DNA from: a virus
DNA: 64,000 nucleotides
Virus record (IMG/VR): IMGVR_UViG_3300041405_000166
Location: 1 to 64,000 of that record
Direction: 5' to 3' (one strand)
Notes under the pieces: model-generated
Database searches by the model: none
What the model saw: the letters and a program-made list of their open reading frames with translations, nothing else
Told to the model about the DNA's origin: nothing
Part shown: piece after piece, positions 12,516 through 13,917 of the stretch
Numbering within the stretch: position 1 is the first letter of the stretch
How the letters are laid out: every line of letters begins with the position of its first letter
Made by a program: the position numbers and the translations under genes

Positions 12516-13024
12516 AGTGCGTGAGAACGTTGCTGCGGTGAAACCCGGCCAGCCGGGTCCGATGAAGCATGAATGTCCCTCCTTCCAGTCATGCGGATTT
12601 GGAGTGTGCTGGACACCAGGGCGTGGAGAGGGTGGCTGAAAATCCCACGCAGTACGGCACGGGGTCACTTCCATAAAGTGTTCCGCCCTGGGAGCCGTCC
12701 ATGAAAGTCGATAGACCTGTCGCAATGGGGTGACGGGATCGGTGAGTAGAGGTCGCTGACAGTCTGGAAAGACAGACACAACTTTTTATCAGTGTGGTCC
12801 TTGGTCTGGTTGAAGACTCACTCGTCCTGATGCACTCGTCAGGTCAGGGACCACAACTAATACAAAGAATCTCTCCCCGGTAGATGCATTGTGGGGATCC
12901 GTCCCGGAATACCGGATAGGGCGCTGTCATGGGCACGTATCAGCTCCGTTTGCCGTCCTGGCGCGGTAGGCCCCCATGAGGCAAGACGGCAAGAGGACTC
13001 GGAGCCTCATGAAAAATTCCGAGG
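12516..13024 (+). ncRNA. Structured non-coding RNA modules, 5' part of RNA island (family unassigned)
   Basis: No credible CDS. Many helices: cccggc/gccggg, gcatga/tcatgc, ccagggcg/cgccctgg, tgtggtcctt/agggaccaca, ttgccgtc/gacggcaa. Also the GACAGTCTGGAAAGACAGAC hairpin at 12758-12777. Confidence 0.6.
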
Positions 13025-13032
13025 CCTTTAAT

Positions 13033-13109
13033 TGCGGGGTAGAGCAGTCTGGTAGCTCGTCGGGCTCATAACCCGAAGGCCGGAGGTTCGAATCCTTCCC
13101 CCGCTACCA
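13033..13109 (+). tRNA. tRNA-Met(CAT), initiator (fMet) type
   Basis: 77-nt cloverleaf, anticodon CAT, three consecutive G-C pairs in the anticodon stem, unpaired 1:72 (T/T), GGTTCGAATCC T-arm, encoded CCA. Confidence 0.95.
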
Positions 13110-13110
13110 T

Positions 13111-13917
13111 ATTGACGAGAGCGTTTGACGCGCCTCATGAACCGGTGGCCGTGGAATACGGGAACTTCTCAAGCTTGGCGAGTACGCCTCGAACCTTGGG
13201 ATGCGATACGGCAGGAGCATGCGGGTCAATGACAGGAGGGAAAGACCCCGCGAATTCGGCGAAAGCCAAAACGTAAAAGAGAGATGCGACCCTGGAATCT
13301 TTTTCAATAAGTCTGGATCGCGATTTTAACGACGGTATCTAAACACGTCGAGACAGCCGGAGAGACGGACCGATCGACTTCGCCGACCAGAATCAAGACT
13401 CCTTGGCGAGGCTGCATCGGAAGTTCCACGGTAACGCTTCGGCGCTAGCCGGCACTTGGGAGAAAGGGGCCTGGAGGCTTACAGAGCGAAACGCCGCGTG
13501 AGTAAGGCATTGACCCCGGCTATGTGGAACTTCCGATGCAGAAAGCTCGTGACAACTGAAACATGAGATCGCCCCCGCTTCGCACAGTGGGCTTAGGTTC
13601 CGTCCCTTTGGGGTTATCGCGGGCCAAGGGGCGACAGGTAACGAGTAGAGTTTTTTGTATCCCGGCACCTCGCAAGAGGCTGTATCGGAAACATCCCCTC
13701 GTGATAGCAGGCTGGCCAGCAGGCAACCGCACCCGAAAGGGTTGGATAGGACCTCACTGGGGATGTTTACCGATGCAGATGAATGTCCAGGCTGATGGGC
13801 GCCGATCTGGGTTCAATTCCCAGACCTCTGATTATGGGGAATTGCCTGAAGGCGGCGACCTTCCGAAACGCTGGTCGTCTAACAGTTAAAGCCGGAGATC
13901 AGCACCGGCCATCTGCA
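13111..13917 (+). ncRNA. Structured non-coding RNA modules, 3' part of RNA island (family unassigned)
   Basis: Perfect 18-bp stem 13412-13429/13524-13541; related stem 13680-13698/13759-13778; tRNA-like module 13774-13917; two more GACAG..GG(A/G)AGAC hairpins. Confidence 0.6.

Follow-up and report, generated by a model that had tools for sequence, protein, structure and literature searches.

An island of exchangeable structured RNA modules, including a member of the sRNA-17 family, in a gene-free stretch of a phage genome

The first 64,000 nucleotides (nt) of a 90,791-bp phage genome with direct terminal repeats (IMG/VR record IMGVR_UViG_3300041405_000166), here called the window, contain a gene-free stretch on the + strand between positions 12486 and 13951. 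This stretch, hereafter the island, raises the question of what DNA without a credible gene encodes in a phage. A first reading of the sequence (the original prediction) had described it as a dense, non-coding island of structured RNA tied to a transfer RNA (tRNA), and this description was supported. The island is non-coding and structured, its modules come and go separately among relatives, and its last module belongs to a large RNA family that includes the small RNA (sRNA) sRNA-17 of Escherichia coli K1. The explanation that we favor, and regard as probable, is an array of small stable-RNA genes, independent of each other and all in one orientation, made up of a tRNA-Met and about nine closed modules (M1-M7, M8a, and M8b), which are exchanged as cassettes and processed by the host.

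Three syntenic IMG/VR contigs (L003, L004, and L005; contigs and loci are given by working labels) were found via the HU-like protein encoded 3' of the island. The longest open reading frames (ORFs) within 12486-13951 (136, 108, 91, 70, and 67 amino acids) matched no Pfam or PHROG family, and insertions and deletions of 7, 14, and other lengths break the reading frames in the relatives, as expected from the original statement that the stretch holds no credible coding sequence. The + strand folded more stably than shuffled sequences, with z = -2.50 for 12486-13032 (0.03 for the - strand) and z = -3.37 for 13110-13951. A search of 12300-14100 against Rfam 15 (cmscan, E ≤ 10, lax filters) returned only the tRNA and a chance mir-30 long-hairpin match; known Rfam families do not wholly explain the island. 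The tRNA that had been placed in the middle of the island was confirmed as an initiator-type tRNA-Met (CAU; 13033-13109, + strand) by ARAGORN and by Rfam RF00005 (65.8 bits, threshold 29). It has a U1xU72 mismatch atop the acceptor stem (the first pair is flagged as non-canonical in the Rfam alignment), a GGG/CCC anticodon stem, and an encoded CCA, and a tRNA-Met stands at the same place in L003 and L005. No other module obtained a tRNA score in Rfam at E ≤ 10.

The pairing of the modules was then compared among homologues, all modules lying on the + strand. M1 (12490-12790) is an RNA of approximately 300 nt with several helices, for which RNAalifold gave a structure with compensatory pairs and Rfam gave no match. 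It is closed by a long-range helix (12490-12507 with 12745-12761) and ends in a terminator-like hairpin (12762-12777) followed by a T-run; this hairpin, the single one found by the terminator scan, is compensated in L005. M1 is conserved at 83-86% in L003/L004 and at approximately 75% in L005. M2 (12781-12868), identified by folding and alignment, is a long hairpin topped by two small hairpins, and the changes of its 16-bp stem (12793-12808 with 12840-12855) in L003 and L005 are transitions that keep the pairing via G-U on the + strand. In the alignment of M1 and M2, 96% of the cells were paired, and 16 pairs were changed on both sides; shuffled controls gave 6.7 ± 1.9 such pairs, and controls with slid partners no more than 3. 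Many conserved G-U pairs of M1 exist on the + strand only. Compensated pairs were also found in M7 (4), M3 (2), and the M4 alignment (5). Covariation was supported for M1 together with M2, for M3, M4, and M7, and for the last module, and the compensatory changes with the strand-specific G-U pairs indicate selection on RNA pairing.

M3 (12869-13031), a cassette of approximately 160 nt with the 3' hairpin CTCGGAG...TTCCGAG, is absent from L003, L004, and L005 and has a homologue (71%) in the unrelated contig L114, from which its compensatory pairs derive. M4 (13111-13247) is a 137-nt RNA family with covarying helices, and its homologues in nine other IMG/VR contigs (73-92% identity) have identical borders; a partial copy was found in L142. 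Its core, CAUGAACCGGUGGCCGUGGAAUACGGG ... GGAAUACGGCAG ... GGGAAAGACC, is conserved, and its apical hairpin varies by contig (CCGG-GAAAGA-CCGG, CUGG...CCAG, or GAGG...CCCC). M5 (13251-13321) consists of a GNRA hairpin (GGC-GAAA-GCC) followed by a hairpin GCGACC...GGAUCGC; it is 77% identical in L040 and L139, and 48 nt of it (13274-13321) are 100% identical in L005, directly 3' of the tRNA-Asn of that contig. A small hairpin (13330-13380) has the loop motif GACAGCCGGAGAG, and a hairpin with this motif also stands directly 5' of M4 in L141 and L143-L147. M7 (13535-13661) is closed by a 14-bp outer helix of GAUGCAGAAAGCUC with GAGUUUUUUGUAUC and has the conserved segments CGUGACAACUGAAACAUGAGA, GGGCUUAGGUUCCG, and CAGGUAACGAGUAG; its identity is 95% with L003 and 78% with both L040 and L139. 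The borders given in the original prediction agreed well with those defined by homology (12793-12855; 13111-13247, earlier given as 13111-13251; 13412-13541; about 13535-13661; and 13680-13779 plus 13774-13917). The recurrent motif GAGTAGAG was present and kept as RAGUAG in relatives; its reading as a loop E was not confirmed.

The modules differ in their presence and order among relatives. L003 and L004 keep 12000-12867 (M1 and M2) at 86%, the tRNA, and 13532-13657 (M7) at 95%, lack 12868-13031 (M3) and 13658-13911 (M8a and M8b), and have 13114-13531 (M4-M6) replaced by other sequence that includes a bracket module (described below) of their own. L005 has M1 and M2 at approximately 75%, tRNA-Met and tRNA-Asn, the 48 nt of M5, and two bracket modules, and its 3' part has a family element of the sRNA-17 type directly before HU and then tRNA-Trp and tRNA-Ser, giving four tRNAs in total. 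The series found on one strand of L040 and L139, two unrelated contigs, is tRNA-Thr, a degenerate tRNA-like unit, M4, tRNA-Asn, M5, an M6-like bracket, M7, another bracket, tRNA-Met, a family element, and tRNA-Gly. Units are lost, replaced, re-ordered, and split by tRNA genes and are therefore not domains of one RNA; the modules are independent cassettes exchanged between phages, and islands elsewhere hold other subsets with interspersed tRNA genes. BLAST searches with M1-M3 and with M4-M8a matched no GenBank phage, and the sRNA-17-type unit alone was matched. Metagenome scans with one M1 motif and one M2 motif found nothing, and M1 and M2 are known from four contigs. The degenerate unit of L040 (approximately 4690-4800, - strand), seen also in L139, lies directly 5' of M4, where the window has its tRNA-Met; in L040 it has a T-arm GGGGUUCGAAUCCUC and an anticodon-arm-like hairpin, and ARAGORN makes no call.

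M6 (13412-13541) is a bracket module in which folding gives an 18-bp perfect stem, CUGCAUCGGAAGUUCCAC / GUGGAACUUCCGAUGCAG, around a 94-nt structured insert. A conserved stem base of the form GCUGYAUCGG ... CCGAURCAG, to which 8-10 more covarying pairs are added, occurred 16 times in the loci examined; it forms M6, modules in L003, L005, and L040, and, with one bulge, M8a (13680-13779), a bracket-type long hairpin predicted by folding (CUGUAUCGGAAACAUCCCC / GGGGAUGUUUACCGAUGCAG, 60-nt insert). M8a is absent from L003 and is seen by Rfam as a generic long hairpin only. In the M6 stem of L040, the base CUGNAUCGG/CCGAUNCAG is kept, and the inner 9-10 bp are wholly replaced and still pair. In the window, each bracket has GAUGCAG in its 3' strand, and the closing helix of the next module uses this same sequence in its 5' strand (M6/M7 and M8a/M8b), the 5' strand of M7 overlapping the 3' strand of M6 by 7 nt, and the same type of strand sharing was found in the Pseudomonas prophage of L206. 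In Pseudomonas prophages, sRNA-17-type elements have closing stems that the bracket base lengthens to 18-20 bp. Despite this shared base, M6 and M8a were ruled out as members of the sRNA-17 family by the covariance model described below.

The last module, M8b (13774-13917), links the island to a much wider family. BLAST showed 85% identity between 13780-13911 and intergenic DNA of the Pseudomonas phage phPA-G, and all stems are compensated between the two, including the closing stem (GCAGAUG/CAUCUGC vs GUGGUCUG/CAGACCAC). The phages AH02 and ZC03 gave short matches with the same ends and different inserts. The family structure was derived from 106 distinct elements, and an alignment of 71 phage sequences was used to build the covariance model R1. 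M8b, which is one of the 71 training rows, scored 76 bits (E = 1.3e-19) over the full length of the model (positions 1-112); members outside the training set scored 59-90 bits, including 59 bits for the copy before HU in L005, and the copy in phage mEp460 scored 84.9 bits. In the alignment of 71, 96% of the cells were paired, both-side changes were seen in 6 of 8 closing-stem pairs and 3 of 4 pairs of the D-like stem, and none of 500 shuffles reached the observed covariation score.

All family parts are present in M8b. A closing stem (UGCAGAUG/CAUCUGCA) is followed by the linker AA, a D-like hairpin (UGUCC-AGGCUGAU-GGGCG), an insert of approximately 90 nt, which contains a canonical T-arm-like hairpin (CUGGG-UUCAAUU-CCCAG), and a T-like hairpin (GCCGG-AGAUCAGCA-CCGGC). 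The D-like stem differs from the consensus UGCGC/GCGCG with its pairing retained. In the family, the closing stem has 6-9 bp (18-20 bp in the Pseudomonas-type copies) and abuts the T-like hairpin without a linker, and the variable insert, or cargo, of 6-180 nt lies at the position of the tRNA anticodon arm. Cargos form subfamilies common to several phages, that of the window being shared with phPA-G. The loop of the D-like hairpin (GCUGAU) is complementary to AUCAGC in the T-like loop. When a second search used the 5' core as its anchor and left the 3' arms free, 121 elements were obtained; their T-like stems have compensated A-U, U-A, and C-G variants, the four inner loop-loop positions have six changes, all G-U compatible, and the fifth has one mismatch. 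Variation at the unpaired last loop base (A, preceding the 3' strand of the stem) is seen in 23 of the 121. These patterns fit, and do not prove, the predicted loop-loop contact between the two hairpins.

The family is widespread. Its 19-mer CGGAGATCAGCACCGGCCA occurs in more than 120 IMG/VR contigs, and a 60-nt minimal element (L133:1209-1268) matches 261 GenBank phage records (Klebsiella 75, Pseudomonas 61, and Escherichia 54, followed by Ralstonia, Salmonella, Burkholderia, Aeromonas, and Erwinia). This element also gave matches in 1306 of the 5426 complete genomes of E. coli, 844 of the matching places being on plasmids, and none of these is annotated. Among species-representative genomes, nearly all full-length matches were in Gamma-, Beta-, and some Alphaproteobacteria. 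Metagenome-assembled genomes labelled Phycisphaerales, Syntrophomonadaceae, and Synechococcus (L175, L184, and L215) also gave strong full-length matches (55-84 bits); these may reflect phage contigs that were binned in error, not true hosts. Matches of the 19-mer in Actinobacteria were local only (25 bits) and were not counted as members. Rfam 15 found only tRNAs and chance matches in ten family-bearing loci, the minimal element, and the mEp460 leader, and a literature search for the family core sequences returned unrelated primer lists only. Clustering of the nearest ORFs around the 121 elements revealed no recurrent neighbor. The core-genome sRNA RydB of E. coli K-12 (L361, 9714-9781) has a hairpin, GCCGGAGAUAAGCGCCGG, that is close to the family T-like arm GCCGGAGAUCAGCACCGG, its remainder being unlike the family; it was rejected as a member, with only a 10-bit local match to R1.

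Transfer RNAs recur near family elements. A tRNA was present within 1 kb of 14 of the 121 elements, on the same strand in all 14 cases, and two of these tRNAs begin a few nt past the end of the element. In the N4-like phage ZC03, the element lies within a tRNA array. In the P1-like phage-plasmid pCREC-532_2 of E. coli (L360, 6764-8062), dmt, tRNA-Asn, and tRNA-Thr are followed by approximately 1.1 kb of unannotated DNA with a tRNA-like remnant and three tandem family copies (7001-7133, 7430-7529, and 7691-7813; 83, 65, and 23 bits in R1), each after (G/A)TGCTCTTWCCGTTG. This locus is a second RNA island of like logic in a classical model phage lineage.

At least one family member, the E. coli K1/mEp460 copy, is a detected RNA, in sense orientation and with mapped ends. 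An mEp460-like prophage of E. coli K1 RS218 encodes sRNA-17, for which Sun et al. (2020) reported no Rfam homologue (PMC7719688). All eight sRNA-17 oligonucleotides in the primer table of that study (PMC7719688 supplement) map exactly onto phage mEp460; the "full-length" primer pair corresponds to L135:3499-3692, beginning 2 nt before the element (3501-3633) and ending at an intrinsic terminator, and the Northern probe (50 nt) is complementary to the insert and T-like arm of the mEp460 element. It follows from this exact mapping that a family member was detected as RNA. sRNA-17 and M8b agree in the closing stem and in both cores (UGAAUGCGCAGGCUGAUGCGC on the 5' side and AAGCCGGAGAUCAGCACCGG on the 3' side), whereas their cargos differ. 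Their contexts differ as well, sRNA-17 having its own terminator tail and lying after a prophage repressor gene, whereas M8b, in a virulent-looking 91-kb phage with a Dar-like block, has no terminator and stands at the end of an RNA/tRNA island before hu. The published work treats sRNA-17 as a strain-specific regulator and describes no family, tRNA-like fold, or tRNA link (PMC7719688).

Phage-encoded stable small RNAs beside tRNAs are a known kind. RNAC and RNAD are located in the tRNA region of phage T4. These two are phage RNAs of yet unknown function (PMC9697503), and they are like the island in organization only, the island having far more non-tRNA units than tRNAs. YrlA, a bacterial Y RNA that also occurs in phages, is a non-coding tRNA mimic bound by Ro60; its closing stem is long, and an internal module resembles tRNA D and T arms (PMC4201824). 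Its genes adjoin the Ro60 (TROVE) gene, whereas a search of the 90.8-kb genome at E ≤ 1, which detected the control genomes, found no TROVE domain. The T-like loop of the family has 9 nt (AGAUCAGCA), in contrast to the canonical T-loop, and its predicted elbow of six Watson-Crick pairs is unlike YrlA. With neither a TROVE gene nor an Rfam Y RNA match, identity as a Y RNA was rejected. STnc100 and PasD are prophage sRNAs in similar leader cassettes of enterobacterial prophages, and STnc100 (RF02076) had no Rfam match in the window island, in the ten family-bearing loci, or, at E ≤ 1, in the mEp460 leader.

The island had been placed between two SNF2 helicase genes, and this holds in part. All flanking genes are on the + strand. 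Upstream are genes for a polyvalent protein with InPase and ART domains (4893-6161, by domain search), a DarB-like protein of 1982 amino acids with N6-methylase and SNF2 domains (6214-12162), and an Ulx-like anti-restriction protein of 108 amino acids (12159-12485; phrog_1629, E = 1.9e-14), the last being the actual upstream neighbor. Downstream, the gene for an HU-like DNA-binding protein (13952-14227; Pfam Bac_DNA_binding, E = 2.5e-30) and a gene for 101 amino acids with a hydrophobic, signal-peptide-like N-terminus (14306-14611) come before the second helicase (1532 amino acids, 14640-19238). The 101-amino-acid ORF is conserved in L003, so the DNA that separates HU from the second helicase is coding and lies outside the RNA island. 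Farther on are a DNA methylase gene (19529-21349; N6_N4_Mtase by Pfam) with a LAGLIDADG endonuclease domain inside the same ORF, and the genes for the head protease and major head protein (21675-24728). The pair of methylase-SNF2 and Ulx-like genes (6214-12485) resembles darB-ulx of phage P1. The island is thus placed within a block resembling the Dar anti-restriction genes of that phage.

The modules could instead act in cis, above all the sRNA-17-type unit before hu, either as a structured 5' leader that stabilizes or insulates the mRNA or by nut/put-like antitermination. The end of M8b and the HU start codon are 35 nt apart, no terminator intervenes, and the order is the same in L005; similarly, the phPA-G element lies approximately 45 nt before a coding sequence. 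Many lambdoid copies sit in the early-left leader after a boxA-like TGCTCTTTCC, and the mEp460 element is at the nutL/putL position directly after the repressor gene. However, HU is kept in L003 and L004 where the element is absent, and the mEp460 RNA terminates right past the element at its own intrinsic terminator, as mapped by rapid amplification of cDNA ends, which is the opposite of antitermination. Copies are also found antisense to the surrounding tail genes (ZCEC13), in gaps near the genome end (ep3), and inside tRNA arrays, and the genes flanking family elements are highly diverse. The architecture of the family differs from the published description of HK022 put, a V-shaped pair of stem-loops of approximately 70 nt for which no closing stem or insert is described (PMC9378689). 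A role as a cis-acting leader or antiterminator is thus the less likely one, and we consider it unlikely.

Slightly less probable still is a decoy function, in which the RNAs would bait anti-phage nucleases directed at tRNA or RNA, or else a partnership with the flanking helicases. One module is predicted to be tRNA-shaped and lies beside real tRNAs, and the island lies inside an anti-restriction block (the DarB-like, Ulx-like, and ART/InPase polyvalent proteins). Minimal members such as the 60-nt L133 element nevertheless have no anticodon arm, the arm that known anticodon nucleases recognize, and the link to the helicases comes from adjacency, whereas the family occurs in hundreds of phages beside unrelated genes with no helicase linkage elsewhere.

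A third explanation acts at the level of DNA, the inverted-repeat brackets and junctions serving as recombination linkers or miniature mobile elements and the RNA structure being a by-product. The mosaic presence and absence of modules, the 48 nt of M5 that stay identical in L005 within flanks of approximately 75% identity, the restriction of the 85% identity with an unrelated Pseudomonas phage to one module, and the conservation of the bracket bases (GCTGYATCGG/CCGATRCAG) at module borders all agree with it. The compensatory changes and strand-specific G-U pairs, which reflect selection on RNA pairing, and the detection of one family member as RNA argue against it; no target-site duplications or transposase genes were seen, and the conserved loops would be meaningless in a DNA-only element. 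As the sole explanation, it is distinctly improbable, although mobile cassettes could encode RNAs, and in that form the two levels are compatible.

Finally, the idea of one large ornate RNA like GOLLD or ROOL, whose domains merely resemble modules, is hardly credible, since the continuous dense structure of 1.4 kb on a single strand, the GAUGCAG strands shared by adjacent modules (M6 with M7, M8a with M8b), and the tRNA adjacency known for those phage-borne, structured RNAs are outweighed by the absence of any large-RNA match in Rfam at E ≤ 10, the single loss, replacement, and re-ordering of modules with tRNA genes inserted between them (as in L005 and L040), the conserved internal terminator hairpin of M1, and the occurrence of single modules alone in unrelated phages. 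Two of the original proposals, one large RNA and a relationship to GOLLD/ROOL, were accordingly dropped; the island is a chain of separable units, and a polycistronic RNA precursor, also proposed, is the option that fits the data.

For the array of small stable-RNA genes, we infer transcription in this phage, processing, and function as follows. The + strand of the island would be transcribed together with the Dar-like (darB/ulx) and hu genes, and the polycistronic precursor would be cut into units by the RNases that mature tRNA and rRNA precursors, as in tRNA operons. The tRNA, and possibly the tRNA-shaped unit as well, would be matured by RNase P and 3' trimming. Classical substrates of RNase III are long perfect RNA duplexes, and this enzyme could act at the long perfect bracket stems, with RNase E cutting between units. 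The products would be stable small RNAs acting in trans. In the sRNA-17 type, a tRNA-shaped scaffold would provide both stability and processing and the cargo would provide specificity, and pairing of GCUGAU with AUCAGC would form a tRNA-like elbow of Watson-Crick pairs.

Several points weigh against this reading. A sigma-70 scan of the + strand from 12000 to 14700 found no promoter, and the candidate promoter that had been noted at the start of the island was not borne out. The covariation test of M1 and M2 used three relatives only, and the structure tested came out of that very alignment. Because the two family searches relied on exact motifs as anchors, the apparent invariance of the anchored arm is partly built in. 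The family has no encoded CCA, and its closing stem varies in length, which makes it a poor fit to a strict RNase P substrate. The published sRNA-17 phenotype is modest (PMC7719688) and may partly reflect read-through into downstream prophage genes.

A more far-reaching proposal, which we offer as a rather doubtful one, is that phages of Proteobacteria have in common a toolkit of cassette-like scaffold RNAs, in which the sRNA-17 family constitutes a new class of tRNA-elbow mimics that use the host tRNA-maturation machinery to display exchangeable RNA cargo. Islands of this sort, set within an anti-restriction block beside an initiator tRNA, would deliver sets of such RNAs early in infection, redirecting or blocking host RNA-binding factors, including tRNA-directed defense enzymes.

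What is new is the density of the island, the unassigned families M1, M2, M3, M4, M5, M7, and bracket, and the recognition that sRNA-17 belongs to a very large tRNA-linked family with a proposed tRNA-like scaffold. Clusters of tRNA genes in phages are generally seen as aids to codon usage or as counter-defense, and the surrounding "empty" DNA has been overlooked; here, that DNA holds approximately nine conserved structured RNAs, several of whose families are missing from Rfam and can be modelled by annotators as new RNA families. The sRNA-17 family is among the most widespread unannotated phage RNAs found; it occurs in hundreds of phages, in P1-like phage-plasmids, and in one of every four complete genomes of E. 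coli. The link to the single published sRNA-17 lends the family experimental support, and P1, mEp460 lysogens, and Pseudomonas phages are tractable systems in which the tRNA-like scaffold with a variable insert offers a concrete structural hypothesis.

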